A program made the translations under genes and the position numbers. From contig CAZKQQ010000008.1 in NCBI GenBank assembly GCA_964554945.1, forward strand, positions 2,827-66,826: a stretch of DNA of 64,000 bases. The letters run 5' to 3'. Every line of letters begins with the position of its first letter. The stretch's first letter is position 1. Source of the stretch: an uncultured Solibacteraceae bacterium. GTDB taxonomy: Bacteria > Acidobacteriota > Terriglobia > Bryobacterales > Bryobacteraceae. The notes under the pieces were generated by a model. The model ran no database searches. It was not told the origin of the DNA and saw only the letters and a program-made list of their open reading frames with translations. Shown one piece after another: positions 19,448-34,143 of the stretch.

Positions 19448-20662
19448 TTACCAGAAATACGTTGCGACGATTTTGGGAGACGAGGGAGATCCGGAAATCA
19501 CTTTCACATGCAAGACGAGCTCGAGGTTCTTCGTCTGCCAGCCGGCGGGGGCGGTACGGAGAGCTTCGGCCATCAATTCCGGTTGGGTGATGAGGTCGGC
19601 GGCCGCTTCCGTCCCGTATTGCGTGATGCCGGCGACTTCCACCAGCATGGCATGAGTGTCCGGATGAAACACGCGCGCCACGATGGCATAATCTTCGTCG
19701 GTATGACGGTCCGCCGGAAGATTGGGGAGCGACCATTGAGTGGTCGCCCCGTTATCGGTGATGCCGATGGGATGACGCGTGGTGTCAATGAAGTAACGCA
19801 TTTCCCGGCTGATCTCGCGCCATCGCGTATAGGAGTAACCGATCAGGATGGCAGGGCCGGTGCGCAGGTCCTCGAAGGTAGCGGCATTACCTACTTTTAG
19901 CCGGTAAGGATGACCCTGGCGAGTCAGAGAGGCGGTCAATTTAGAGACGGCAATGAGGTCTCCGCCGCCGACAAATTGATCGTTGAGCTGAACGAAATCC
20001 TTCGGCTGGGGCGTCTGGTTGGTGTCGGGGTCGACACGGTACACGGGCACGTAGGCGGCGGACAACAGCACGGGGAAATTCCCCGTGAGGACAGGGGCCC
20101 AGAACTGATCGAGCGGGGTGTTGGCAGGGCGCGTGCGCAGCCAGACGATGCCGCCGGCGACGAGGCAAAGAAGCGCGGCCAAGGCGAGAAGGCGCGGGCC
20201 GATGTGGACCGTTACGCGGCGCGGCGGGGGCAACGGCATCACCGGCATCTCGGGCGCGGGTGACGGCTCGGGCGGGGCCGGCGCGATTTCCGCCTGGCGA
20301 AACTCCGGGACATAGGAACCGAGCGGCAGCTCGATGCGAACGCGGTCGTGGGCGCCCTGGTCGGAGTAATACAGGCTGAGGCGTTTGCGAACTTCGCTCG
20401 CTTTCACGCGGACCGTGGCGTCTTCGCTCGGATCGTAATCCGTGGTGCGGCCGAAAACTTCGATTCCGATGGTTCGTTCCTTCAAGAACTCGGCCTGGCC
20501 GTTCAAGGTGTGCTCGACGATGTAACGGAGGAAGTCCTGGCTGCGCTTGCTGGTGCGGAACTCGTGGCTGGCCAGGACGCGGATGAGCGCCTCTCGAACC
20601 GCCTCTTCGGACCACGGCGGCCCGTGTGCGGGGGAGACTCCTGGAGAATGCCCCTGGGCCAT
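19448..20662 (-). CDS. membrane-anchored protein with cytoplasmic winged-helix-like N-terminus, one TM segment and a periplasmic domain (ToxR-like topology)
   Basis: LASHEFRTSKRSQDFLRYIVEHTLNGQAEFLKERTIGIEVFGRTTDYDPSEDATVRVKASEVRKRLSLYY is a recurrent N-terminal module. TM segment LLALAALLCLVAGGIVWL, followed by about 230 aa of unknown domain. Confidence 0.65.
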   Translation of the reverse strand: MAQGHSPGVSPAHGPPWSEEAVREALIRVLASHEFRTSKRSQDFLRYIVEHTLNGQAEFLKERTIGIEVFGRTTDYDPSEDATVRVKASEVRKRLSLYYSDQGAHDRVRIELPLGSYVPEFRQAEIAPAPPEPSPAPEMPVMPLPPPRRVTVHIGPRLLALAALLCLVAGGIVWLRTRPANTPLDQFWAPVLTGNFPVLLSAAYVPVYRVDPDTNQTPQPKDFVQLNDQFVGGGDLIAVSKLTASLTRQGHPYRLKVGNAATFEDLRTGPAILIGYSYTRWREISREMRYFIDTTRHPIGITDNGATTQWSLPNLPADRHTDEDYAIVARVFHPDTHAMLVEVAGITQYGTEAAADLITQPELMAEALRTAPAGWQTKNLELVLHVKVISGSPSSPKIVATYFW

Positions 20663-20702
20663 TGTGACCTATTCTAACGCGGAACACACTGAAAACATAT
20701 TG

Positions 20703-20757
20703 CGTTCGATGGAGTAATGAACGGGCTCTTAACAGGCGTAACGGTTTGGAACTGGAC
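20703..20757 (+). promoter_or_regulatory. copy A of a block-conserved element of about 56 nt (CGTTCGATG..GTAAyGAAC-N7-TAACrG..AACsGTTkkGAACTrGAC)
   Basis: Hand alignment with copies B and C. The element ends 41 nt before the ROK-like ATG at 20799. Confidence 0.7.
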
Positions 20758-20798
20758 AGGGCGCTGGGAAAGATCCGACGATGAGGGCAGGGAGAACC

Positions 20799-22223
20799 AT
20801 GCGCCCATTTTTAGTCGTGTCTCCGAAGTTCCGGCCGGTATTGGATCCGGAATTCGTTCCAGCGTCGCTGTGGAACCGCGCCTACCGGGCCGCGGTTCGG
20901 ACGAGCGGCGGGACGAACCTGGCGCTCGCGTTGGAACGCAGCGAGGGGTCCGTATCGGTATACCGCACTGCGATACTGCCCGATACGGATGACCACGCGG
21001 CCGTGAACGAGCGGTATGTCGAACGGTTAATGAAATTCCTGCTGTGGCAGAAGGGCGCGTGGCGGGTGAACGTGGGCGGAGATTCGCGGATCGCGAATTT
21101 CCTGAGCACGGTGTACGGACTCGGAGGCGCGCGGGCCTTCGATCGGCGGTTCATGGGCGAGCGGATATACGGACGTCCTTTTGAGGTCCGAAACACGACG
21201 TTCGAAGCTGCGCCTGTGGAAAAAGAAACGATGGCGCGGCTCGGGCGGCACTTGGACGGGTATCGGATTGGTTTCGATCTGGGGGCGAGCGACCGCAAGT
21301 GCGCCGCGGTTGTGGACGGACAGGTGATCTTTAGCGATGAGGTGCCGTGGAATCCGAGCGCGCAATCGGACCCGCAATATCACTTCGACGGAATCCACGA
21401 CTCTCTGAAGCGGGCCGCGGCCAGACTGCCGCGAGTGGATGCGATCGGCGGAAGCGCCGCGGGAGTCTACGTCGGCAACGAGGTTCGAGTAGGTTCCTTG
21501 TACCGCTCGGTGCCGCCGGCATTGTTCGACGGCCGCATCCGCCGGCTCTTTTTCGAGTTGCAGAAAGCGTGGAGCGGCGTGCCCTTTCAAGTTGTGAACG
21601 ATGGCGAGGTCACGGCCCTGGCGGGTTCCATGGCGCTGCATGATAACGCGGTGCTGGGTATCGCGATGGGTAGCAGCCTGGCGGCAGGTTACGTCACCCC
21701 CGAAGGCAGCATTACGAACTGGCTGAATGAACTGGCATTCGTTCCGTTAGATTATCGCGAGAACGCGCCAATCGATGAGTGGTCGGGCGATGCGGGCGTG
21801 GGGGTACAATATCTGTCTCAGCAGGCGGTGGGACGGCTGCTGGAGCCGGCCGGAATCCATCTGGCGAAAGATCTGGGGCTTCCCGCGAAACTCGAAGAAG
21901 TGCAGAAACTCATGGCCGCGGGCGATGTGCGCGCACGAAGGATTTACGAAACGATCGGTGTTTACTTCGGATACGCCATCGCGACGTATGTGGATTTTTA
22001 TGAAGTCCGCAACCTTTTGGTGCTGGGACGGGTGTTGAGCGGCGAGGGCGGCGACGTGATCTTGTCGGTGGCGCGTAAAGTTCTGCAGGAAGAGTTCCCT
22101 GAAGTGGCTGAGCGGATCCGCGTTCACGTTCCGGATGAAAAGGAAAAGCGCCACGGGCAGGCCATCGCGGCCGCGAGTCTGCCGCCGATTCACGTTGAGG
22201 AGAAGGTTCATGCGTTTTCATAA
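20799..22223 (+). CDS. ROK-like/ASKHA sugar kinase family protein with an N-terminal extension of about 150 aa
   Basis: GFDLGASDRKCAAVVDG (phosphate-1-like), VVNDGEVTALAG and GIAMGSSLAAGY. Start set at ATG 20799, after GGGAGAA. Confidence 0.7.
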   Translation: MRPFLVVSPKFRPVLDPEFVPASLWNRAYRAAVRTSGGTNLALALERSEGSVSVYRTAILPDTDDHAAVNERYVERLMKFLLWQKGAWRVNVGGDSRIANFLSTVYGLGGARAFDRRFMGERIYGRPFEVRNTTFEAAPVEKETMARLGRHLDGYRIGFDLGASDRKCAAVVDGQVIFSDEVPWNPSAQSDPQYHFDGIHDSLKRAAARLPRVDAIGGSAAGVYVGNEVRVGSLYRSVPPALFDGRIRRLFFELQKAWSGVPFQVVNDGEVTALAGSMALHDNAVLGIAMGSSLAAGYVTPEGSITNWLNELAFVPLDYRENAPIDEWSGDAGVGVQYLSQQAVGRLLEPAGIHLAKDLGLPAKLEEVQKLMAAGDVRARRIYETIGVYFGYAIATYVDFYEVRNLLVLGRVLSGEGGDVILSVARKVLQEEFPEVAERIRVHVPDEKEKRHGQAIAAASLPPIHVEEKVHAFS

Positions 22224-23064
22224 CCCGGGGGCGGATCTATTTGTTCCCGATGGCGTGGAGCCCCCGGGGGCGCTGGCGCGCACCACGCACCTGTGCATTG
22301 CCGCTCATCAGGACGATGTCGAAATCATGGCGTACCACGGTATCGCAGAGAGTTTCGGCAAGGCGGACAAGTGGTTTTCGGCAGTGGTAGTGACGAACGG
22401 AGCGGGCAGCCCCCGCAATGGGATTTACGCCGGCTACAGCGATGACGAGATGCAGAAGGTGCGATTGCGGGAGCAGCGCAAGGCGGCGTATGTCGGCGAG
22501 TATGGGTGCCAGGTGCAGCTCGGGTTCTCGAGCGCGCAGGTGAAAAATGCCGGCGAGCGCGCGCCGGTCGAAGATCTGAAGCAGATCTTGATGGCGGCGC
22601 GGCCGGAGGTCGTGTACCTGCACAATCTGGCCGATAAGCACGATACGCATGTCGCGGTGGCGCTGCGCTCGATTGCGGCGCTGCGGGCGGTACGGGATCA
22701 AGTCCGGCCGAAGAAGGTTTATGGGTGCGAAGTCTGGCGCGACCTGGACTGGCTGCCGGACGAGGATAAGCAGGCGTTGCCGGTTTCGGCGCGGTCGAAT
22801 CTGGCTGCGGCACTGGTGGGTGTGTTTGATTCCCAGGTGAGCGGCGGCAAACGGTACGATCTGGCGACTGCCGGGCGGCGGCTGGCGCACGCCACTTACT
22901 TTGCTTCGCACGGGACTGATGAAGAGAGCGGGTTGAGCTTCGCGATGGATCTGACTCCTCTGATCGAAAGGCCCGACTTGCCGGTAAGCGAATACGTGTT
23001 AGGGTTCGTCGATCGGTTTCGCGCAGATGTGGAGAAGCGGCTGAATCTGGCTTCGAACATTTGA
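22210..23064 (+). CDS. PIG-L/LmbE family deacetylase
   Basis: LCIAAHQDDVEIMAYHG matches the AHPDDE metal-binding motif. ATG 22210 follows GAGGAG and overlaps the upstream gene by 14 nt. Confidence 0.8.
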   Translation: MRFHNPGADLFVPDGVEPPGALARTTHLCIAAHQDDVEIMAYHGIAESFGKADKWFSAVVVTNGAGSPRNGIYAGYSDDEMQKVRLREQRKAAYVGEYGCQVQLGFSSAQVKNAGERAPVEDLKQILMAARPEVVYLHNLADKHDTHVAVALRSIAALRAVRDQVRPKKVYGCEVWRDLDWLPDEDKQALPVSARSNLAAALVGVFDSQVSGGKRYDLATAGRRLAHATYFASHGTDEESGLSFAMDLTPLIERPDLPVSEYVLGFVDRFRADVEKRLNLASNI

Positions 23065-23109
23065 CCGCTCCCTGACGGTCGCGATTCGGAAACTCCTGAA
23101 AAAACAGCA

Positions 23110-23165
23110 CGTTCGATGGGTAATGAACCCGCGCATAACGGCTCCGCAACCGTTGTGAACTAGAC
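23110..23165 (+). promoter_or_regulatory. copy B of the conserved element of about 56 nt
   Basis: By hand alignment, 44 of 57 columns are identical to copy C. Ends 39 nt before the SSS transporter ATG. Confidence 0.7.
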
Positions 23166-23204
23166 GCAGCCCGGCCTGCCGCCTCACTATGGCCTCGTGA
23201 GCAC

Positions 23205-24968
23205 ATGCAACTGAACTGGCTGGACTGGTGCTGGGTCGGCCTCTATTTCGCAGGCAACCTGGCCATCGGCCTGTTTTATCGGGCGCGCGCCGGTAAGAGC
23301 GTCAGCGAGTTTTTTCTATCGGGCCGGAACGTGCCGTGGTGGCTGGCGGGCACCTCCATGGTGGCGACGACGTTCGCGGCGGACACACCCCTGGCGGTAA
23401 CGGGGATGGTGGCCCGGGGAGGAATCGCCGGCAACTGGTTGTGGTGGAGCTTCGTTGCCAGCGGCATGCTCACCGTGTTTTTCTATGCGCGGCTGTGGCG
23501 CCGGTGCGGCGTGATGACCGACATCGAGTTCGCCGAAGTCCGGTACGCGGGCAAGCCGGCCGCCTTTCTGCGCGGATTTCGGGCGCTGTATCTCGGGATC
23601 CCGATCAATTGCATCATCCTCGGCTGGGTCAACCTGGCGATGGTCAAGATTCTGATGATGGCGCTCGGCCTCACGCGGCTAGAGGCTCTGCTGGTGGTGC
23701 TGGGGATGATCGCGCTTACTTCGATGATCTCCACGCTTTCCGGTTTATGGGGAGTGCTGGTGACCGATCTGTTTCAGTTCGTCATCAAGATGACCATGGT
23801 CATCGTGCTCGCGGTAGTCGCGGTGCAGGCGGCGGGCGGCATGAAGGCGATGAAGTTGAAGCTCATGCTGCTGGATCAGGGCAAGAGCGGGTCGGTGCTG
23901 AACTTCATTCCGGATTTCAATTCGGCGTGGATGCCGATGACTACGTTCCTGGTGTATATCTCGCTGAACTGGTGGGCGACCTGGTATCCGGGAGCCGAGC
24001 CGGGCGGCGGCGGGTATATCGCGCAGAGGATGTTTTCAGCCAAGGACGAGAAACACTCGCTACTGGCAACGCTATGGTTCAACATTGCGCACTACGCCAT
24101 CCGGCCGTGGCCATGGGTGCTGGTGGCGCTGGCTTCGCTGGTGCTCTTTCCCGGCCTGAAGGATCCGGAAACCGGATACGTACGGGTGATGATCGCGTAT
24201 TTGCCGGCTTCGCTGCGCGGCATCATGCTGGCTGCTTTCGCGGCCGCTTACATGTCGACCATTGCTACGCAGTTGAACTGGGGAGCCAGCTACATAGTGA
24301 ACGATTTTTACCGGCGGTTTCTGCGTCCAGCCGCGCCCGAACCACATTACGTGGCCGTATCGCGATGGTCCACCGTGCTGCTGACCGTGATCTCGGCGGT
24401 GGTCACGTTCTACCTGGATTCGATAGCCGGGGCCTGGAAGCTGCTGATCGTGACGGGAGCGGGAACCGGGCTGGTGCTTCTATTGCGGTGGTTCTGGTGG
24501 CGGATCAATGCGTGGAGCGAAGTATCGGCGATGGCTTCGGCATTCGTCACGTCGGTAGCGCTCCAGACTGCCGGCGGAATGGACAGCGACCGGCCCGCGG
24601 ACTTCGCCCGGATCATGATGATCACGGTGGGGGTGACCACGGCCGTCTGGCTCGGGGTGACGTTTCTGACCAAGCCTGAATCCGATCAAACGCTGATCAA
24701 GTTTTATTCCCGTGCGCGGCCGGGAGTCACCGGATGGGGGCCGATCGCGCGCCTGGTTCCGGAAATCCGCGGCTCCAACAACGGCTGGTATAGCGCGCTC
24801 GATTGGGTGAGCGGGTGCGTGCTCATCTATGGAGTGTTGTTCGGCACCGGCAAAATATTGCTGGACGAATGGGCCGCCGGACTGTCGTTACTGGGCATGG
24901 GATTGGCAGGAGGCGCGGTGGTGTGGTGGGACCTTTCGCGGCGCGGGTGGAGTTCGGTGGTGCAGTAG
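23205..24968 (+). CDS. sodium:solute symporter (SSS) family transporter
   Basis: FFLSGRNVPWWLAGTSMVATTFAADTPLAVTG and multiple TM segments over 587 aa. Confidence 0.85.
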   Translation: MQLNWLDWCWVGLYFAGNLAIGLFYRARAGKSVSEFFLSGRNVPWWLAGTSMVATTFAADTPLAVTGMVARGGIAGNWLWWSFVASGMLTVFFYARLWRRCGVMTDIEFAEVRYAGKPAAFLRGFRALYLGIPINCIILGWVNLAMVKILMMALGLTRLEALLVVLGMIALTSMISTLSGLWGVLVTDLFQFVIKMTMVIVLAVVAVQAAGGMKAMKLKLMLLDQGKSGSVLNFIPDFNSAWMPMTTFLVYISLNWWATWYPGAEPGGGGYIAQRMFSAKDEKHSLLATLWFNIAHYAIRPWPWVLVALASLVLFPGLKDPETGYVRVMIAYLPASLRGIMLAAFAAAYMSTIATQLNWGASYIVNDFYRRFLRPAAPEPHYVAVSRWSTVLLTVISAVVTFYLDSIAGAWKLLIVTGAGTGLVLLLRWFWWRINAWSEVSAMASAFVTSVALQTAGGMDSDRPADFARIMMITVGVTTAVWLGVTFLTKPESDQTLIKFYSRARPGVTGWGPIARLVPEIRGSNNGWYSALDWVSGCVLIYGVLFGTGKILLDEWAAGLSLLGMGLAGGAVVWWDLSRRGWSSVVQ

Positions 24969-24977
24969 CAAACTGAT

Positions 24978-27131
24978 ATGCTTCGTTACCTTTTGATTAC
25001 GGCGTTTCTCAGCGGGGCTTCGGCCGCGACGCTGCCGTTGATGCCCGCGCCGGCGAAGCTCGTGGCGACCGGTGGAAAGCTGGCAATCGATTCGAGTTTT
25101 CGGGTTGCGAGCGAAGGTTATTCCGATGCCCGGTTGCAAGCAGCGATAGGCCGGCTCGTCGCGCGGGTGGAGCGGCAGACGGGAATTCCCCTCCAGGCGA
25201 ACAATCGAGTTACCCTGCGGGTGATCTGTCAGGGGCGCAGTAATGAGTATCCGGTTTTAAGGGAGGACGAAGCGTACCATCTTCGGGTATCGTCCGGAGA
25301 CGCGCTCCTCCAAGCAAACACGGTGACCGGCGTTCTCCGGGGCCTGGAAACGTTCGCTCAATTGATCGTTGCGGGGCCGGACGGTTTCGAGGTTCCCGCC
25401 GTCCAAATCGAAGATCATCCGAGGTTTCCATGGCGCGGGCTCATGTTCGACGTGGCGCGGCACTGGATGCCGGCGCCCGTGGTGGAACGCAACCTAGATG
25501 CAATGGCTGCGGTGAAGCTTAACGTTTTTCACTGGCACTTATCCGACGATCAGGGCTTCCGAATCGAGAGCAAGCGCTACCCGCGCCTGCAGGAAGGCGG
25601 CAGCGATGGCCGGTTCTACACGCAAGCCGAGGTGCGGGAGGTAGTGGCGTATGCGCGCGACCGCGGCATCCGGGTAATTCCGGAATTCGATATGCCGGGC
25701 CACACGTCGGCGTGGTTTGCCGGATATCCGGAACTGGCGAGCGCACCGGGGCCGTATGCAATCGAGCGCAAGTGGGGCATCTTCCAACCGGTGATGGATC
25801 CCACGCGCGAAGAGATTTACACGTTTCTGGACGGACTGATTGGTGAGATGGCCGCGCTGTTTCCCGATCCGTATTTTCATATCGGCGGCGATGAAGTAGA
25901 GGAGACGCAATGGAAGAATTCACCTTCCATTCAGGCGTTTGCGCGAGCGCACCAATTGGCGACGAGCCGCGATCTGGCCGCGTATTTCACAGGCCGCGTG
26001 CAGAAGTTGCTGAAGAAGCATGGCAAGACGCTGGTCGGCTGGGATGAGGTCCTACAGCCTGGGCTCGCCGAAGACGCCGTCATTCAGTCCTGGCGCGGAC
26101 AGGCATCGCTGGCGGAAGCGGCGCACAAAGGACATCGCTCGCTGCTTTCGTTCGGGTACTACCTCGATTACCTGAAGCCCGCGAGTTCGCATTACGCGGT
26201 GGATCCGTTGGACGGCGCCGCGCGGGATCTCACGCCGGAGCAGACGGCTCGGATTCTCGGCGGCGAGGCCTGTATGTGGTCCGAATACGTGAGCGCCGAG
26301 ACGGTGGATTCGCGGCTTTGGCCGCGGCTGGCGGCGATCGCAGAGCGCTTCTGGTCTCCTCGCGACGTGACCGATGTGGAGTCGATGTATCAAAGGATGG
26401 AAGCGGTCAGCCGGTCGCTCGAGTGGGTCGGATTGAAGCATCGGTCGAGCGGCGGCCTTTTGCTCGACCGGCTCGCCCGGGCAGGCTCCTCCGAACCGTT
26501 GCGGGTGTTGGCCAACGCCTCCGAAGCACTCGGCATCGAAGGGCGTCGCGGCACTCGGACATATACGAGTCTCGTGCCTTTGAACCGGTTTGTCGATGCC
26601 GTTCCGCCGGAAAGCGAATCCGTGCGGCGCCTGGAGCGCGATGTGGCCCGGATGGATAGCGAACCAACGGCCGTGGCGGATTTACGAAGCATTCTGGCTC
26701 AATGGGCGGAATCCGAGGCGCAGGTCCGAGCGCTAGCCGAAAACAATGGGCTTCTGAGCGAGATTGTGCCGCTCGCCCGGAACCTGTCTTCCGCGGCCCG
26801 GATCGGGCTGCGAGCGCTCGACCTTCTTGAAAAACATCAGGCCGCGCCCGAAGGCTGGGCAGCACGTGAGAATCAGGAACTCGCCCAACTGGACCAGCCG
26901 ATCGCGGAAGTCAAACTGGCAGCGGTGCGGCCGGTGCGTTTGCTGCTGGGGGCGGTGGCGCGCCGGGCCGCTCAAATCAAACTGCAAACTCTTGAAACAG
27001 CGAGCGTTCGATGCGGTAACGAACCTCTCTGTAACGGAACCACAACGGTTGTGAACTGGACATTCGGAAGTATCCGGTCCAACATCACGCTGGAAAACAA
27101 TGCTTTGGGTGGCCAGAGCGGACTTCGTTGA
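24978..27131 (+). CDS. GH20 beta-N-acetylhexosaminidase with a helical C-terminal extension
   Basis: NVFHWHLSDDQGFR and FHIGGDEV catalytic motifs. Signal-like N-terminus MLRYLLITAFLSGASAA. Confidence 0.9.
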   Translation: MLRYLLITAFLSGASAATLPLMPAPAKLVATGGKLAIDSSFRVASEGYSDARLQAAIGRLVARVERQTGIPLQANNRVTLRVICQGRSNEYPVLREDEAYHLRVSSGDALLQANTVTGVLRGLETFAQLIVAGPDGFEVPAVQIEDHPRFPWRGLMFDVARHWMPAPVVERNLDAMAAVKLNVFHWHLSDDQGFRIESKRYPRLQEGGSDGRFYTQAEVREVVAYARDRGIRVIPEFDMPGHTSAWFAGYPELASAPGPYAIERKWGIFQPVMDPTREEIYTFLDGLIGEMAALFPDPYFHIGGDEVEETQWKNSPSIQAFARAHQLATSRDLAAYFTGRVQKLLKKHGKTLVGWDEVLQPGLAEDAVIQSWRGQASLAEAAHKGHRSLLSFGYYLDYLKPASSHYAVDPLDGAARDLTPEQTARILGGEACMWSEYVSAETVDSRLWPRLAAIAERFWSPRDVTDVESMYQRMEAVSRSLEWVGLKHRSSGGLLLDRLARAGSSEPLRVLANASEALGIEGRRGTRTYTSLVPLNRFVDAVPPESESVRRLERDVARMDSEPTAVADLRSILAQWAESEAQVRALAENNGLLSEIVPLARNLSSAARIGLRALDLLEKHQAAPEGWAARENQELAQLDQPIAEVKLAAVRPVRLLLGAVARRAAQIKLQTLETASVRCGNEPLCNGTTTVVNWTFGSIRSNITLENNALGGQSGLR
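27005..27061 (+). promoter_or_regulatory. copy C of the conserved element of about 56 nt, embedded in the 3' tail of the GH20 ORF
   Basis: Hand alignment. Ends 100 nt before the receptor ATG at 27162. Confidence 0.7.
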
Positions 27132-27161
27132 AAGGAAAAAGGGAGGAGAAGTGAGGTCATT

Positions 27162-30100
27162 ATGAGAAGGAACGATTCTCAGCAAAACAGCCGGATGGGG
27201 CGCCTGCTAATTGTCTCGCTGGTACTGGCACTGCTCGCGGCCCTGATACCAATTGCAGCGGCACAGGAAGTGACCGCCGGGATCACCGGCAAAGTCACGG
27301 ATCCATCCGGAGCCGCCATCGTGGGAGCGTCAGTGGTAGCCAAGGACGTAGATCGTGGCACCGAATGGAAAACTCAAACCAATGAGGAAGGAATTTACAA
27401 CCTGCCTCGCGTGCCAACCGGAAAATACGAACTGCGGGTAGAGGCGAGCGGGTTTCAAACAGCCGTCCAGCCGCCGTTTGATCTGGTGCTGAACCAGACG
27501 GCGCGGATTGAGTTCGCGATGGTGCTCGGCCAGGTCTCTCAGACCCTGGAAGTGACCAGTGCGGTCCCCTTGCTGCAGACCGAAAATACACAAGTCGGCT
27601 CGGTGATGCAGGCCAGCACGATTGCCAATCTGCCGCTGCAGACGCGCAATTATAACCAGTTGACTCTGCTGGTACCGGGCGCGGTGACGATCAGCCCGGC
27701 GTCGTTCAATACGGGCCAGAAGACATTCAACTCCGCGCGGCCGAACATCAACGGCAACCGCGAGCAGGCGAACTATTACATACTCGACGGCCTGGATAAC
27801 AATGAGTTCGTCGATAACGCGGTGGCCTTCGTGCCGAACGTAGACGCGATCGAAGAGTTCAACGTCATTACGAACAATCCGAGCGCGGAGTTTGGCCATT
27901 TCCTCGGCGGAGTCATCAACGTCAGCCTGAAATCCGGCACGAATCAATTCCATGGCAATGCGTTCGAGTATCTGCGCAACGACTTTTTCAATGCCAATGA
28001 ATGGTCGAACAATTTCAATGGCCTGCCGACGCCGCGGCAGCGCTGGAATGAATACGGGGGAACCCTCGGCGGACCGATCAAGAAGAACAAGCTCTTCTTT
28101 TTTGCGGACTATCAGGGATCACGGTTCGATCTTCCCGCCACTCCGAATCCGAAGACTACGTTCACCGCGCCGAATATCACCGGCAACCTGACCGATATTG
28201 GCGCGTCGCTGCACTATCCGGGGACCACGGTGGCGATGCCGGCGGATTTAAGGCAAGCGGCTATCTGCGGAGCGGGACAAAAGATGGGCGTCAATCCTTG
28301 CATCACGGGGTTGAGTCCGGTGGCGCTGAAGATCGCGAATGCTCTGCCGAAGCCGAATCTTCCCGGCACGCCGGGCAGCCAAGGGACGCTCGCCAACCTG
28401 GCGAACACGACCCAGACCTACACGCACGGTAACCAAGGCGACATAAAAGTGGACTGGGCGCCGACAGACTTCGACCGCTTTTTCGCCCGTTACTCCCAGC
28501 AGCACGTGACGCGGCCGATCGTGAATAGCGAAGCGTTCCAGTATAGCGGCGATGGCAGCGGCGTCTTTCCGATTCAGCAGGCGGTGCTCAATTACACGAG
28601 GACGTTCAGCCCGCGCCTGCTGAATGATTTTCGTTTGGGAATGAGCTATTATCCGGCCGAAGACAAATCCGAAGCGCTGACCACAAATGCAGGCGCCAAC
28701 CTGATACCCGGACAGCCGATGCCATTCCTTCCCGGGTTGTATTTTGCCAATGCGCCGATCGGGGGTCAGCAGAACGGCCCGTTCGCGTTCGGCACCACGT
28801 TCGCGCCGGAAGTGTTCCACCAGACGACCATTCAGGTTTCCGACACCGCGATCTTCACGAAGAACGCACATACATTGAAGTTTGGATTCCAACTGATCCG
28901 ATACCGGAACAACTACATACCTGCCACGAGCAATGATGGCGCGGCGGGGCAGATCGGCTTCACAGGAACCTACACCGGGAACTCCGAAGCGGATTTCTTC
29001 CTTGGTCTGCCCGCTTATATGGGCTATGGACTCGGATTTGCCGGAACCGTAGGCCAGCGAAACAATGCGATCGGAGCATTCGTGCAAGACGACTGGCGAA
29101 TCAGCCGGCACCTGACGATGAACATCGGGGTGCGTTGGCAGCTCTTCACGCCGATTTATGAAGTGCACGACCGCATGACGAACTTCGGGATGTATAGCGG
29201 TCAAATCCAGCTGGCGGGGCAGAACGGCAACAGCCGGGCCCTTTACAACCAGTACAACGGGATCGCGAACTTCTTGCCGCGTCTCGGGCTGGCTTACACT
29301 CCCGATGAGAAGACGGTGATTCGCGCGGCCTTCTCGCGCTCGAGTTTCTGGGAAGGCACCGGCGAGTACAACCGGCTGGCAACGAATTCGCCGTGGAATA
29401 CCGATCTGGTCGGCACGTGGGGCGGGGTCGGGTCGAATGGCGCAATCCCCTCAAACCAGATCACTCTCGATCAAGGCTTCGCAGGGCTCGGAGCCGCGGG
29501 CGCGCCCTGCACGACAGCCAATGTCACTTCGGCGTCAGCCACGTGCTTCGCCGGCGTCCGGCTGCACGCGACCGATCCGAATTATCGCCCGGCGGTATCC
29601 AATCAATGGAACTTGAGCATCCAACGACAGGTGGGGAAATCGTTCACGGCGCAAGCGGCGTACGTCGGGCAACATACCGATCACATCGCGGCCATATACA
29701 ATATGGGGCAGAATTTCCTGTTGCCGAACGGCACCGCGATTCCGGGTCCGTATCTGTCGGGGAATCCGGCTCTGAAGAATGCCGGCACCGGACAGCAGCG
29801 GCTGAACACATCGACCGCGATCCAGAACTATGAAGCTTTGCAAATGATGGGTCAGCAGCGGCTGACGAAAGGGCTGGCGATCCAGGTAAACTACACCTGG
29901 TCCAAGTGCCTGACGGACAACCAGGGTTACTACGGCCGGTATGGGAACGCGGCCGCGGCGCAGACGCCGGCAGACGTTTCCTTCCAATCGTATGTTTACA
30001 ACGTGCGCGGTCTCGACTATGGCCTTTGCGACGCCGACGTCACGCACAATTTTAACGGCTATCTGAATTACGACCTGCCGTTCGGCAAAGACCGGATGTT

Positions 30101-30650
30101 CGGCAAGAACGCCGGCAAAGCGGTGAATGCGATTCTCGGCGACTGGCACTACGACACTATCTTCACGGTGCATGGCGGCCTGCCGGTTTCGATGATTCAG
30201 TTCGGCTCCGATCCGACCGGCGCTTACTTCCAGCCGCGTCCCGATTGCATCGAGCCCTCGAAAGCAACACCTTATAAGAATTTCGCCGGCGGCGGTTATA
30301 TCTGGTTCGACCCGACGACGATGCGGATACCGGGCCCCGGCAAACTCGGCAACTGCAGTATTTCCTCGCAGCGCAGCCCGGGCTACCGGCAGATCGACAT
30401 GAGCCTGGCGAAGACCTTCCGAATCACGGAGCGGCAGAACCTGCAATTCCGCTTCGACGCCATCAACACCTTCAACACGCCGATCTTCACGATGGGCGGC
30501 TACTCGGCGGATGTCCTCCCGGGCAACTGGAACGATAATGTGAGCCGCTACGGAACCGACATCAACTACACGAAGAGCGTTCCGACGGGCGTGGTGAATA
30601 CGTCGCTCGGCGCGCGCAATCTGCAGTTTGCCTTGAAGTACACGTTCTGA
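27162..30650 (+). CDS. TonB-dependent receptor, Oar-like, with carboxypeptidase-regulatory-like N-terminal domain
   Basis: GKVTDPSGAAIVGASVVAKDVDRGTEWKTQTNEEGIYNLPRVPTGKYELRVEASGFQ. C-terminus LQFALKYTF. Paralogue of 11787..15434. Confidence 0.9.
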   Translation: MRRNDSQQNSRMGRLLIVSLVLALLAALIPIAAAQEVTAGITGKVTDPSGAAIVGASVVAKDVDRGTEWKTQTNEEGIYNLPRVPTGKYELRVEASGFQTAVQPPFDLVLNQTARIEFAMVLGQVSQTLEVTSAVPLLQTENTQVGSVMQASTIANLPLQTRNYNQLTLLVPGAVTISPASFNTGQKTFNSARPNINGNREQANYYILDGLDNNEFVDNAVAFVPNVDAIEEFNVITNNPSAEFGHFLGGVINVSLKSGTNQFHGNAFEYLRNDFFNANEWSNNFNGLPTPRQRWNEYGGTLGGPIKKNKLFFFADYQGSRFDLPATPNPKTTFTAPNITGNLTDIGASLHYPGTTVAMPADLRQAAICGAGQKMGVNPCITGLSPVALKIANALPKPNLPGTPGSQGTLANLANTTQTYTHGNQGDIKVDWAPTDFDRFFARYSQQHVTRPIVNSEAFQYSGDGSGVFPIQQAVLNYTRTFSPRLLNDFRLGMSYYPAEDKSEALTTNAGANLIPGQPMPFLPGLYFANAPIGGQQNGPFAFGTTFAPEVFHQTTIQVSDTAIFTKNAHTLKFGFQLIRYRNNYIPATSNDGAAGQIGFTGTYTGNSEADFFLGLPAYMGYGLGFAGTVGQRNNAIGAFVQDDWRISRHLTMNIGVRWQLFTPIYEVHDRMTNFGMYSGQIQLAGQNGNSRALYNQYNGIANFLPRLGLAYTPDEKTVIRAAFSRSSFWEGTGEYNRLATNSPWNTDLVGTWGGVGSNGAIPSNQITLDQGFAGLGAAGAPCTTANVTSASATCFAGVRLHATDPNYRPAVSNQWNLSIQRQVGKSFTAQAAYVGQHTDHIAAIYNMGQNFLLPNGTAIPGPYLSGNPALKNAGTGQQRLNTSTAIQNYEALQMMGQQRLTKGLAIQVNYTWSKCLTDNQGYYGRYGNAAAAQTPADVSFQSYVYNVRGLDYGLCDADVTHNFNGYLNYDLPFGKDRMFGKNAGKAVNAILGDWHYDTIFTVHGGLPVSMIQFGSDPTGAYFQPRPDCIEPSKATPYKNFAGGGYIWFDPTTMRIPGPGKLGNCSISSQRSPGYRQIDMSLAKTFRITERQNLQFRFDAINTFNTPIFTMGGYSADVLPGNWNDNVSRYGTDINYTKSVPTGVVNTSLGARNLQFALKYTF

Positions 30651-30753: not shown

Positions 30754-31221
30754 ATGCGTCCGGCTTCTGTTTTAGTTGCTATCACAATGATCGGGTTCGT
30801 TTATGGGCAGGCGCCGGCAACGGACCCGCATGAAGACCCGAAAGCGAACGGCGGGAACCGGACCGGCGATTCAAAGCAGGCGCCGCCCGATCCGCAGGCG
30901 GCGCCGGATCCGGTACCAGTGCGTGCTCCGAACCCGGATACGGCGGCGCCGGACCAGCCTGGGGCCGGCACGAAACCAGCCAGCGATACCGAGCTGATAA
31001 GCGCGATTCGCGCTGCGCTCGCGGCTGATCGCGAAACGCGGCAGGCTGCTGGAAGAATAAAAGTGATCGCGCATGCCGGCACGGTCACGCTGCAGGGGAC
31101 GGTGACAACCGCAGAGTTCCGGAGGTCGGTGGAACAGAAGGCCACCGCGATTGCGGGTAAGGGCAAAATAACGGACGAGATCAAGGTGAAAGCGAGCGTC
31201 CGGGGTTCGCGTTCCGAGTAA
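30754..31221 (+). CDS. BON domain protein with a Pro/Ala/Asp-rich linker
   Basis: LISAIRAALAADRETRQAAGRIKVIAHAGTVTLQGTVTTAEFRRSVEQKATAIAG is a BON-like pattern. N-terminal signal MRPASVLVAITMIGFVYG. Confidence 0.75.
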   Translation: MRPASVLVAITMIGFVYGQAPATDPHEDPKANGGNRTGDSKQAPPDPQAAPDPVPVRAPNPDTAAPDQPGAGTKPASDTELISAIRAALAADRETRQAAGRIKVIAHAGTVTLQGTVTTAEFRRSVEQKATAIAGKGKITDEIKVKASVRGSRSE

Positions 31222-31257
31222 TCGAGCCAGACGAACGAGGACATACGGGCGCATACC

Positions 31258-32046
31258 GTGCCCCCCCGCCCCCCGCCCCCCCGTTTGACACCGGTTTCCG
31301 GCACATGTACGATCAACGGCGTGAACAACTCGACAGGGGCTGCCCTCGTTGTCGCCCTCCTCACGATTTCCGCGTCCGGTCAAACGTACCGGGCCCCTCG
31401 CACTGCGGACGGAAAACCGAACATAAACGGCATCTGGCAGGCCGTGAACTCGGCCGACTGGGACCTGCTGGGACATGCGGCTGGACAGGGTCCTGTGTTG
31501 TCGCTGGGAGCGGTGTTTTCGCGGCCCCCGGGGTTAAGCGTGGTGGAAGGCGATGAGATCCCGTATCTGCCCGCCGCTCTTGCCAAAAAGAAGGCCAACC
31601 AGGCCGACTGGGTCAAGCTCGACCCCGAGGTGAAGTGCTACCTGCCGGGCGTGCCCCGCGCGACCTATCTGCCTTATCCGTTTCAGATCATACAGTCATC
31701 GAAGAACATTATGGTGGCATACGAGTATGCGGGAGCGGTCCGTGTCATTAATATGGAAGCTCCCACGAAGGCACCGGCCGACAGCTGGATGGGGTGGTCG
31801 AACGGGAAATGGGAAGGCGAATCGCTGGTGGTCGATGTGACGAGCCAGAACGATGAGACCTGGTTCGATCATGCGGGCGATTATCATAGCGATGCCCTGC
31901 ACGTGGTGGAGCGATACACGCCGCGCAGCGCCGACACTCTGAATTACGAAGCCACCATCGAGGATGCCAAAGTTTTTTCGCGGCCGTGGAAGATCAGCAT
32001 GCCGCTGTACCGGCACGTCGAGAAGGACGCGAAGCTTCTCGAATAA
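31258..32046 (+). CDS. secreted protein of unknown function, paralogue 1 (divergent member); start uncertain
   Basis: Shares YRAPRTADGKPNINGIW, WEGESLVVDVTSQ and LHVVERYTPRSADTLNYEATIEDAKVFSRPW with the next two genes. Candidate starts are GTG 31258, TTG 31285 and GTG 31321. Confidence 0.7.
   Translation: MPPRPPPPRLTPVSGTCTINGVNNSTGAALVVALLTISASGQTYRAPRTADGKPNINGIWQAVNSADWDLLGHAAGQGPVLSLGAVFSRPPGLSVVEGDEIPYLPAALAKKKANQADWVKLDPEVKCYLPGVPRATYLPYPFQIIQSSKNIMVAYEYAGAVRVINMEAPTKAPADSWMGWSNGKWEGESLVVDVTSQNDETWFDHAGDYHSDALHVVERYTPRSADTLNYEATIEDAKVFSRPWKISMPLYRHVEKDAKLLE
31261..31282. repeat. C7-G-C6-G-C7 homopolymer cluster
   Basis: Read directly: cccccccgccccccgccccccc. Confidence 0.95.
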
Positions 32047-32124
32047 AAATGCGTTGAATTCAGTGAAGAGGTATTATACTGACCTCTCCGCAAGAAGCCA
32101 ATCAACCCTTAGAAGGAGGCTCCC

Positions 32125-33102
32125 ATGATGCGTCGGCTGCTCGCATTGGCGGCTGCTTGGGCGGCACTGTCGCTCGCGCAGACTCCCGCGGCGAAGTCCT
32201 GGAAAGCGCCGCGGACGCCGGATGGCGCGCCGGACATTCAGGGCATCTGGAGCAACTCCACGCTGACTCCTTTGGAGCGGCCGAAAGGACTCGGAGCGAA
32301 AGAGTTCTACACGGAACAGGAATTCGCCGAACTGGCGAAGCGCGTGCGCGAGGGCAAAGTCGGCGATGAAGCCGATATCGGGGCCGCCGCCGAACAGACG
32401 CTCCGGTACGACCTTAGCTTGTATGGATTTGACATCACCAAGGCGACGTTCGCATCAAACCGGCGCACGTCGCTGATCGTAGGACCGGAGGGCGTGGTGC
32501 CTCCGATGCTGCCGCAGGCGAGGAAAAGAAATGCCGAGCGCGCCGCGAAGAACAAAGGACACGAGTTTGACAGCTACGAGAACCGACCGCTGCAGGAGCG
32601 CTGCATTCTGCTGGGGCAGGAAAGAATCCCGATGCTGAGCGGGCCCAACGACAATAACGAACTGCAGATCGTGCAGGGACCGGGCTGGGTGGTGTTACTG
32701 CATGAGATTAACCACGACACCCGCGTGATTCCCACGGACGGGCGTCCGCACCTGCCGCAAAGCATTCGTCAATACCAGGGAGATTCGGTCGGGCATTGGG
32801 ATGGAAACACGCTAGTTGTCGATACGACGAATTTCATGGACCTGGCAAATTTTCGAGGATCCGGCGAGAAACTGCATCTGATCGAGCGCTTCACGCGCAC
32901 GGCGGAGGACACAGTGCTTTACCAATTCACCGTCGAGGATCCGGAGACATGGTCGAAACCGTGGACCGCGGAAGTTCCGATGGTCAGGACAGAAGGACCG
33001 GTATACGAGTGGGCCTGCCACGAAGGCAATACGATGATATCCACCATCTTGAATGGGGCGCGTGTTGCGGAGGCAGAGGCCGCCAAGAAAGCCGGAAAGT
33101 AA
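32125..33102 (+). CDS. secreted protein of unknown function, paralogue 2
   Basis: Signal MMRRLLALAAAWAALSLAQ. Motifs WKAPRTPDGAPDIQGIW, GDSVGHWDGNTLVVDTTNF and YEWACHEGN. RBS AGGAGG. Confidence 0.8.
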   Translation: MMRRLLALAAAWAALSLAQTPAAKSWKAPRTPDGAPDIQGIWSNSTLTPLERPKGLGAKEFYTEQEFAELAKRVREGKVGDEADIGAAAEQTLRYDLSLYGFDITKATFASNRRTSLIVGPEGVVPPMLPQARKRNAERAAKNKGHEFDSYENRPLQERCILLGQERIPMLSGPNDNNELQIVQGPGWVVLLHEINHDTRVIPTDGRPHLPQSIRQYQGDSVGHWDGNTLVVDTTNFMDLANFRGSGEKLHLIERFTRTAEDTVLYQFTVEDPETWSKPWTAEVPMVRTEGPVYEWACHEGNTMISTILNGARVAEAEAAKKAGK

Positions 33103-33117
33103 CAAATGGGAGGAATC

Positions 33118-34143
33118 ATGAAAGCGCCATTGGCCGCGTTGGCGGCCCTTACGATGATCGTTACGCTGGCGCCGGCGCCGGCCGCCGGACAGACGTTGTC
33201 GCCTGCCGCGAAAGCGGTCAAGGCCGGCAAGCCTTGGACGCCGCCGCGCACCGCCGACGGCCATCCGGACCTGGAAGGGGTCTGGACGAATAACACGGTT
33301 ACCCCCCTGCAGCGGCCGAAGGCAGTCGCCGGCAAGGAGTTTTACACGGAAGCCGAACTAGAGGCGCTGACAAAAAAGGAAAACGACCGGCTCGCCAAGA
33401 ACGAGGAAGAGGGCCTTCCCACCGAGCCGGGAACCGCCGCGGACGTGCATTATGACTTTAGCGAGTATGCTCTCGACCGCGGTCAGGCCAAGATGGTCTG
33501 GAACCGCCGGACTTCGATTATTACGGGTGCGGACGGCACCATTCCGCCGCTGACTGCCGAGGCGCGCCAACGAATTGCCGAGCGCCGCGCCAAGGCCAAG
33601 GGCCATGAATTCGATGGTCCCGAGAACCGGCCAATCGGCGCCCGCTGCCTGGCGCGGGAAAATGTAGGCCCGCCCCTGCTGCCCACTGCCTACAACAGCA
33701 ATCTGCAAATCGTGCAAGGCGCCGGGTATGTGGTAATCGAAACCGAGATGATTCACGATGCGCGCGTCATTCCGACCGACGGCCGCAGCCACATTTCGAA
33801 GAACATCCGCCAATGGTATGGCGATTCCGTCGGCCACTGGGATGGCAATACGCTGGTGGTGGACACGACGAACTTCACGAACCTGAGCCCGTTCGAGGGG
33901 GCCGAGAATCTGCACGTAGTCGAACGCCTCACGCGGGTCGACAACGATACGATCCTGTACCAGTTCACGGTAGAAGATCCGGGTATGTGGACCAAGCCGT
34001 GGTCCGGGGAACTACCCATCACGAAGGTTCAAGGGCGGATCTACGAATACGCTTGTAACGAAGCGAATTACGGGTTGGCGAATACGCTGCGCGGCGCCCG
34101 GGTGGCCGAGGAAGAAGCCGCCAAGAAAGCAGCAGGCAAGTAG
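33118..34143 (+). CDS. secreted protein of unknown function, paralogue 3
   Basis: Signal MKAPLAALAALTMIVTLAPAPAAGQ. Motifs WTPPRTADGHPDLEGVW, GDSVGHWDGNTLVVDTTNF and YEYACNEAN. ATG 33118 follows GGGAGGA. Confidence 0.8.
   Translation: MKAPLAALAALTMIVTLAPAPAAGQTLSPAAKAVKAGKPWTPPRTADGHPDLEGVWTNNTVTPLQRPKAVAGKEFYTEAELEALTKKENDRLAKNEEEGLPTEPGTAADVHYDFSEYALDRGQAKMVWNRRTSIITGADGTIPPLTAEARQRIAERRAKAKGHEFDGPENRPIGARCLARENVGPPLLPTAYNSNLQIVQGAGYVVIETEMIHDARVIPTDGRSHISKNIRQWYGDSVGHWDGNTLVVDTTNFTNLSPFEGAENLHVVERLTRVDNDTILYQFTVEDPGMWTKPWSGELPITKVQGRIYEYACNEANYGLANTLRGARVAEEEAAKKAAGK

Follow-up and report, generated by a model that had tools for sequence, protein, structure and literature searches.

A repeated element before the amino-sugar genes of an uncultured Bryobacteraceae bacterium as part of a putative promoter-operator module

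Why should an element of about 56 nt recur, always in the same orientation, before each of three transcription units of a single amino-sugar locus? The question is raised by a stretch of 64,000 nucleotides (contig CAZKQQ010000008.1, assembly GCA_964554945.1; referred to throughout as the window) from an uncultured Solibacteraceae bacterium of the Acidobacteriota, a dominant, hard-to-culture soil phylum. A full-text literature search found no paper on an amino-sugar regulon motif or promoter architecture in this phylum. The original prediction regarded the repeats as a shared cis-regulatory module and offered an operator array, an alternative-sigma promoter or a structured leader as its nature. 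In the present analysis each copy appears as the upstream two-thirds of a promoter module of about 100 bp, which would act at the level of DNA and combine a promoter with a protein-binding array; to this reading as a whole we assign a probability of about 0.75. The operator array is thereby retained, joined with a promoter, the structured leader finds no support and an alternative sigma factor is not required.

The three copies were located in the sequence at 20703-20757 (A), 23110-23165 (B) and 27005-27061 (C), all on the plus strand, exactly as predicted. The pattern CGTTCGATG-N1-3-GTAAYGAAC has three matches in the window compared with 0.00 in 100 shuffles, and AACSGTTKKGAACTRGAC, allowed up to three mismatches, finds only the same three sites in the 64 kb, where 0.16 are expected; a fourth site is absent from the window and the repetition is not a product of chance. 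Pairwise identity among the copies amounts to 43-46 of 57-58 columns, in agreement with the 44 of 57 counted earlier by hand for B and C. The reported distances of 41, 39 and 100 nt between the copies and the start codons of the genes for a ROK-like protein, a sodium:solute symporter (SSS) and an Oar-like TonB-dependent receptor are also correct, provided that ATG 20799 is used for the first of them.

The distribution of the element was determined by scanning 185,579 species genomes with the exact pattern GTAAYGAAC-N6-7-TAAC-N6-8-AACSGTT-NN-KAAC. The scan gave 69 stretches in about 58 species genomes, labelled as Bryobacterales, Bryobacteraceae, Solibacteraceae or Terriglobia metagenome-assembled genomes (MAGs) with the single exception of one labelled Limnocylindrales. 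A looser regular expression yielded the 84 distinct instances on which the counts of gene context and conservation given below are based; the compared loci outside the window carry L-numbers (L001 etc.). The gene most often found downstream encodes an Oar-like TonB receptor (46 instances), followed by SIS (12), ROK-like kinase (6), SSS (6), PIG-L deacetylase (5), GH20 (3) and a DegT-like aminotransferase (1-2), and almost all matches in related genomes stand before amino-sugar or TonB-receptor genes. Orthologous loci whose SSS proteins are 78-93% identical contain two to three copies each at equivalent positions, which agrees with the predicted role of a module shared by the transcription units and with the expectation that relatives should keep it. 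Judged by these contexts, the element is the mark of a putative amino-sugar regulon. Three copies in 6.4 kb might also be left by a generic dispersed repeat of the REP/MITE type, the outcome named at the outset as contrary to a regulatory role. Such scatter was not seen: there are one to three matches on each contig listed, among them two on an 8.7-Mb contig and one on a complete 5.6-Mb chromosome, and the copies are always co-oriented with the downstream amino-sugar gene and keep a fixed distance to it, so that this explanation is left with practically no weight.

The anatomy of the element is that of a series of short boxes. The 75-84 instances from other genomes share GTTC, GTA, GAAC, TAAC, AAC-GTT and AACT-GA without exception, and the linkers between these boxes vary in sequence and shift in length independently by ±1 nt, the span from GTTC to GAC being 54-56 nt; the discrete blocks and unconstrained linkers described from three copies are thus found again in the larger set. 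The order of boxes is GAAC-N6/7-TAAC-N6-8 (mostly 8)-AAC(S)GTT-NN-GAAC with 10-11 bp from AAC to AAC, and therefore the four phased AAC triplets (CGAAC, GTAAC, GCAAC and TGAAC) would lie on one face of the helix, with the last box abutting the −35 hexamer. AACSGTT is a 7-bp palindrome centred on C in 72 instances and on G in 11, as expected for the centre of a palindrome recognized in double-stranded form. When the window copies are aligned with their flanks, conservation extends 5′ into a CTGAAA/TTGAAA box; across instances an A at −20 (78/83) and TTGAAA at −14 to −9 precede the core, counted from the G of GTTC. The 56-nt core stands as reported, and the unit of which it is part is larger, with about 20 nt more on the 5′ side and about 25 nt more on the 3′ side. 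These extensions had been overlooked, as had a divergent gene encoding a protein of 404 amino acids (reg404) as a candidate regulator.

On the 3′ side the final five bases of the element together with the next A form a −35-like hexamer, TGGACA, which in most instances matches TTGACA in five of six positions and in which T, G, A and C hardly vary or do not vary at all. Beyond it, information content in the 84 instances peaks at GG +15/+16, C +19, A +20, A +23 and T +24, counted from the C of GAC. A hexamer of the form xAnnAT, with the consensus (C/G)AnnAT, follows in 82/84 instances, whatever the gene context, with a spacer of 17 bp (60 sites) or 18 bp (22 sites), and the core looks sigma-70-like: TGGACA-N17/18-(C/G)AnnAT. 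Its transcription start may be placed just 3′ of the element, about 31-33 nt past its end, which puts the blocks at about −37 to −106. The three modules of the window are composed as follows.

20683..20782, plus strand: module A, predicted promoter of the ROK-like kinase/PIG-L unit
Distal AA and TGAAAA at 20683-20695, CGTTCG at 20703-20708, GTAATGAAC at 20714-20722, TAAC at 20730-20733
Proximal AACGGTT at 20740-20746, GAAC at 20749-20752
−35 TGGACA at 20753-20758, 18-nt spacer, −10 GACGAT at 20777-20782, predicted start near 20789

23090..23190, plus strand: module B, predicted promoter of the SSS/GH20 unit
A at 23091, TGAAAA at 23097-23102, CGTTCG at 23110-23115, GTAATGAAC at 23120-23128, TAAC at 23136-23139
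Proximal AACCGTT at 23148-23154, GAAC at 23157-23160
−35 TAGACG at 23161-23166, 18-nt spacer, −10 CACTAT at 23185-23190, predicted start near 23197, ATG at 23205

26986..27085, plus strand: module C, predicted promoter of the Oar-like TonB-dependent receptor
A at 26986, TTGAAA at 26992-26997, CGTTCG at 27005-27010, GTAACGAAC at 27016-27024, TAAC at 27032-27035
Proximal AACGGTT at 27044-27050, GAAC at 27053-27056
−35 TGGACA at 27057-27062, 17-nt spacer, −10 CAACAT at 27080-27085, predicted start near 27092, leader of about 70 nt

The homology-anchored start codons of the SSS, PIG-L, SIS and GH20 genes lie 6-24 nt past the −10 hexamer (SSS at 8 nt in three loci; PIG-L at 6, 7 and 8 nt in three loci), and for several SSS, PIG-L and SIS genes the distance is 6-8 nt. 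A further promoter would find no space in between, in keeping with these genes being leaderless or nearly so. A leaderless layout would explain the distances of 41 and 39 nt noted for the first two copies; the leader of the receptor gene is longer, in the window about 70 nt by the predicted start. Within the receptor leader (27086-27161) the segment just past the −10 is kept in close relatives (CACGCTGGA…AATGCTTTGGGTGGCCAGAGCGGA in the window, L001, L003, L009 and L057). The leader also holds a 7-bp hairpin, GCUUUGG/CCAGAGC, with a fold z-score of only −1.8, and other receptor lineages share a GAGAA motif soon past the −10.

The first base of the −10 hexamer is C or G and almost never T, whereas the putative −10 of reg404 itself is TAGAAT, and the missing T suggests promoters that are intrinsically weak and dependent on a factor. 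Activation rather than repression of the module is less certain than the module itself. The same array might be the operator of a repressor, either reg404 or an unlinked protein of the NagC, NagR or LacI type, released by an amino-sugar effector. A −35 near consensus with an optimal spacer might make the promoter active alone, the proximal boxes abut or overlap that −35, and classical regulons for N-acetylglucosamine (GlcNAc) are mostly controlled by repressors. However, most of the array is positioned upstream of the core and nothing is conserved over the −10 or the start, the −10 systematically departs from the form seen at the promoter of reg404, and Pfam identified no GntR, ROK-HTH or LacI regulator in the locus, where a dre-like site is likewise missing; repression is an unlikely, though not a negligible, alternative.

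The evidence supports the view that the element acts as DNA, upstream of the predicted start, and not as an RNA leader. A structured, riboswitch-like 5′ leader would have to be transcribed from an upstream promoter with TTGAAA as its −35, a box which does lie 17-19 nt ahead of GTAAYG, and GTTCG/YGAAC can indeed pair over 5 bp, with G-C varying to G-U. The only candidate −10 of such a promoter (GTAAYG or TAAYGA) never ends in T, however, which led to its rejection, and no proposed helix shows covariation. In 75 instances RNAalifold retains just the invariant GTTCG/YGAAC stem and a 3-bp stem, with a total of −3.9 kcal/mol and a covariation term of −0.13. The two hairpins of the original prediction consist of pairs that are invariant or unpaired: their covariation score is 0.044 compared with 0.047 in shuffles, and the sole variable pair of the second hairpin is unpaired in 43/72 sequences. 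A further hairpin around TAAC, complementary by eye in some instances, was discarded because permuted partners pair equally well (mean energy of the flanking linkers −2.09 versus −2.12 ± 0.16 kcal/mol). No Rfam family matches the window at its gathering threshold, only two chance matches to small nucleolar RNAs (E ~0.5) being found elsewhere. A leader would also leave unexplained the conserved −10 at 17-18 bp past TGGACA and the start codons 6-8 nt beyond it, and its probability is very low.

Natural variants of the array indicate which of its parts are essential. A profile search revealed forms that differ by whole helical turns. One lacks the TAAC unit, i.e. one turn (L007:6777-6843, L008:3860-3932, L032:4886-4957, L055:400-471 and L065:2871-2944), and precedes PIG-L-GH20 or SIS-GH20; a still shorter one occurs in L091 just 5′ of the regulator gene (match from 2501). 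These variants, shorter by one turn or two, carry GTACCGAAC or GTTACGAAC instead of GTAAYGAAC. The minimal form, AAAC-N8-CAACCGTTGTGAACTGGACA-N17-TAGTCT, was found in L022, L029, L033, L035, L045, L046, L064, L072 and L075 (e.g. L033:4593-4626, plus strand), about 130 nt 5′ of a receptor-type copy and in the opposite orientation, before genes for an AmpG-like MFS permease and a phosphohexomutase-like protein. It keeps only the proximal module, which thus seems indispensable, and the distal boxes look auxiliary. Extra matches to AACSGTTNNGAAC in L022, L046 and L060 were set aside as lying inside coding sequence.

The persistence of the proximal module in the minimal form, and its invariance elsewhere, could also be taken to mean that a dedicated alternative sigma factor of the extracytoplasmic function (ECF) type, and not an activator, recognizes AACSGTT-NN-GAACTGGAC as an extended −35. 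GAAC-type −35 motifs are typical of ECF sigma factors, and AACCGTTNNGAAC stands beside the −35 at a paralogous locus as well. Against this, a hexamer with the sigma-70 signature (A2, A5, T6) follows a TTGACA-like one after 17-18 bp, the loci examined have no conserved gene for a sigma or anti-sigma factor, and the boxes reach about 70 bp upstream, far past any sigma contact; a dedicated sigma factor is therefore improbable, more so than a repressor.

The element had been described as not assignable to any known motif, and it matched none of the operator or RNA families with which it was compared. By eye, the sigma-54 pattern GG-N10-GC fits a single instance and the spacings of an ECF-type GAAC-N16/17-CGT misfit in both halves of the element; a Bacteroidota −33/−7 promoter, a CRP TGTGA half-site and an even palindrome of the LacI type do not fit the invariant positions. 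The DasR/NagR dre operator, a 16-bp palindrome (ACTGGTCTAGACCACT), has no match in the window at up to three mismatches. The LexA box of Acidobacteria and Alphaproteobacteria, GTTC-N7-GTTC, stands before SOS genes; the element has GAAC-N6/7-TAAC with an invariant T in the second box, and its downstream genes are sugar genes.

Which protein would bind the array? The genes of the locus are listed below.

19448..20662, minus strand: reg404, 404-aa protein without Pfam hit, candidate cognate regulator
20799-22223, plus strand: ASKHA/ROK-like protein of 474 aa (474/480), without Pfam hit
22135-23064, plus strand: PIG-L deacetylase (Pfam)
23205-24968, plus strand: SSS sodium:solute symporter (Pfam)
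24978-27131, plus strand: GH20 beta-N-acetylhexosaminidase (Pfam)
27162..30650, plus strand: Oar-like outer-membrane receptor with CarboxypepD_reg and OMP_b-brl_4 (Pfam), the commonest gene 3′ of the element

Among them reg404 is the sole conserved gene that encodes neither an enzyme nor a transporter, and wherever an element-bearing locus contains it, it lies directly beside the element in divergent orientation. Counted from the element, a divergent reg404 within 450 nt accompanies 6/6 kinase, 3/3 PIG-L, 2/2 GH20 and 4/9 SIS first-operon sites, the apparent exceptions L007 and L032 carrying the short array variant. The reciprocal count, made on 73 metagenome orthologues of reg404 with at least 150 nt of upstream sequence, gave a divergent element within 400 nt in 63/73 and a shortened variant in one more (64/73), the remaining nine loci being rearranged. 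The putative −10 of reg404, TAGAAT (20671..20676, minus strand), read from the sequence 8 nt before its ATG, would imply a leaderless transcript, and L001, L003, L025, L058, L066, L068 and L069 have ATTCTA/ATTTTA at an identical offset. The corresponding −35 zone and the distal TGAAAA box of copy A overlap, which makes autoregulation possible. Two other candidates for the regulator were rejected: the ROK-like kinase, which is present in some loci only and has no helix-turn-helix (HTH) detected, and a 400-aa gene upstream in L004/L005, which encodes a secreted protein.

No sequence match to reg404 was found in Pfam, NCBIfam or PDB. Its AlphaFold2 (AF2) model comprises a cytoplasmic N-terminal domain (about 17-125), a Pro-rich linker, one transmembrane (TM) helix (about 156-177), visible in the sequence as the hydrophobic stretch LLALAALLCLVAGGIVWL, and a periplasmic C-terminal alpha/beta domain. 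The N-terminal domain is modeled confidently with helices at 19-30, 39-53, 62-68 and 83-105 followed by a beta-hairpin at 108-123, and the topology, with the N-terminus inside and a single TM helix, is that of ToxR/CadC-like one-component regulators. Foldseek with the full model returned only weak matches to BcsB, GH115 and GH67 domains, which concern the periplasmic part. From this architecture and from the gene linkage DNA binding by reg404 may be proposed, and we consider the chance that it is the protein binding the array to be slightly better than even.

The N-terminal domain, about 110 residues encoded at 20270-20662, belongs to a large family, with 18,801 clusters at 50% identity (E ≤ 0.001) and no Pfam model. 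One UniRef record names a paralogue of reg404 ‘TolB amino-terminal domain-containing’; a literature search on that name found nothing related. In longer members a domain of the reg404 type is fused to TPR, PD40 or TIG domains. Four paralogues were examined: two stand divergently to other Oar-like receptor genes and a third is near one (L076, L077, L078); in L076 (Bryocella elongata) the receptor gene beside the paralogue is followed by an alpha-L-fucosidase gene. The receptor promoter of L077, AACCGTTACGAAC-C-TTGACG-N17-TAGACT, has the same proximal module as the element, and L076 carries TAACGGTTCGTAACGTTGTGA before a TAGGGT −10. It is conceivable, although we hold it for somewhat doubtful, that the reg404 family represents a large unannotated set of ToxR-like membrane regulators, the main locus-specific switches of Oar-type TonB-receptor and glycan loci in Acidobacteriota, each reading phased xAAC/AACNGTT boxes that abut the −35. 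Were this so, the near-invariant putative recognition helix (D..VRV.A.EVRKRL) would explain the box vocabulary common to the element and L077.

Several points weigh against the promoter-array reading and against reg404 as its factor. A generic sigma-70 scan (at least 9/12 matches) called none of these promoters and nothing in 20600-27250. The −35, with its five matches of six, is unusual for an activator-dependent promoter, and its invariance may reflect contacts of the factor and not of sigma. The instances are phylogenetically related, so that their counts overstate independent support. The N-terminal domain of reg404 is not recognized as DNA-binding: 24 family members gave no Pfam match even at E ≤ 10, Foldseek of the N-terminal model against PDB found nothing (best E 1.1), and hhalign against the DNA-binding domains of OmpR, PhoB, CadC and ToxR reached only E 0.048-0.095, in alignments that pair VFGR...VRVKAxEVRKRL...GSY with VWG...VDVHIxRLRKAL...GYxF, the putative recognition helix and wing. 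L004 and L005 have the element and no reg404 homologue within 10 kb, and a partner of the receptor without regulatory function could be expected to show such gene linkage too.

With these reservations, the promoter-array reading can be put as a mechanism. A dedicated transcription factor would bind the phased boxes from about −37 upstream and activate an intrinsically weak sigma-70-type promoter with a suboptimal −10. The factor would most likely be reg404, anchored in the membrane and responding through its periplasmic domain to chitin-derived sugars, and the outcome would be the co-induction of two to three units for uptake and catabolism of amino sugars and chitooligosaccharides (receptor, hexosaminidase, transporter and cytoplasmic catabolic genes). 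If correct, the module offers a concrete promoter architecture, made up of hexamers at −35 and −10, transcripts without a leader and start sites predicted at three positions, and a sequence by which the amino-sugar/chitin regulon can be sought in Bryobacterales MAGs. In reg404 there would be a specific candidate for the sensing of chitin-derived sugars in these bacteria; if it is the true binder, a large family of ‘hypothetical’ membrane proteins found with TonB-receptor loci would gain a function.

Some further features of the locus were recorded. The closest homologues of its proteins come from Bryobacteraceae MAGs; an exact look-up of the SSS protein of the window gave no matching record. 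By eye, ASKHA-type motifs (DLGASD, VVNDGEV) can be made out in the ROK-like protein, which yet has no Pfam or NCBIfam match. The GH20 frame reads through module C (26990-27131), so that its last ~47 codons (…SVRCGNEPLCNGTTTVVNWTF…) translate the promoter boxes, and the same is true of L001 and L003; in L004 and L006 GH20 stops ahead of the element, and protein homology ends at …AAVRPVRLLL. On the 3′ side of the receptor gene (30754-34143) there are four genes, for a 155-aa BON-domain protein and for proteins of 262, 325 and 345 aa without Pfam match. The receptor gene of L001/L002 is followed by four genes without Pfam match (305, 269, 329 and 340 aa), no BON domain being recorded, and no comparable run of genes follows the receptor in L003, L004 and L006.

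Compared with known systems, the motif would be a new, regulon-specific promoter-operator, and the protein family attached to it appears to be the more novel lead of the two. The arrays of OmpR and PhoB (pho boxes, OmpR F1-F3) resemble it in having boxes one turn (10-11 bp) apart that abut the −35, an imperfect core promoter and variants by whole turns; they differ in that the boxes of the element (xAAC, AACSGTT, CGTTCG) match no described box, some of them are inverted (GTTCG...CGAAC, AAC-S-GTT), and neither a response regulator nor a Trans_reg_C domain could be detected in the locus. The GlcNAc and chitin regulons (NagC/Mlc, NagR/DasR dre, NagQ) similarly place one motif before several units for uptake, hexosaminidase, kinase, deacetylase and deaminase-like genes, but that motif is a palindrome of 16-23 bp and not a multi-box array of about 70 bp; a dre match is missing here, and no ROK-HTH or GntR gene was identified by Pfam in the locus. 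Regulation of the polysaccharide utilization loci of Bacteroidota (SusR, hybrid two-component systems, ECF sigma/anti-sigma pairs) employs other protein families, and the present receptor is Oar-like with a CarboxypepD_reg N-terminus; neither a SusD partner nor a sigma/anti-sigma pair was seen. Common to both systems is a candidate inner-membrane sensor-regulator beside a TonB receptor and glycoside hydrolases, and paralogues of reg404 are found beside other receptor loci. Unlike ToxR, TcpP, CadC and the ChiS protein of Vibrio, reg404 has neither a Pfam Trans_reg_C nor a Foldseek match, its hhalign scores stay at E ~0.05-0.1 and its periplasmic domain is unrelated. It resembles them in its modeled plan, in which a single TM helix joins a cytoplasmic N-terminal domain to a periplasmic one, and in the position of its gene beside the presumed target, and in the manner of ChiS it would couple the periplasmic sensing of chitin sugars directly to the promoter.

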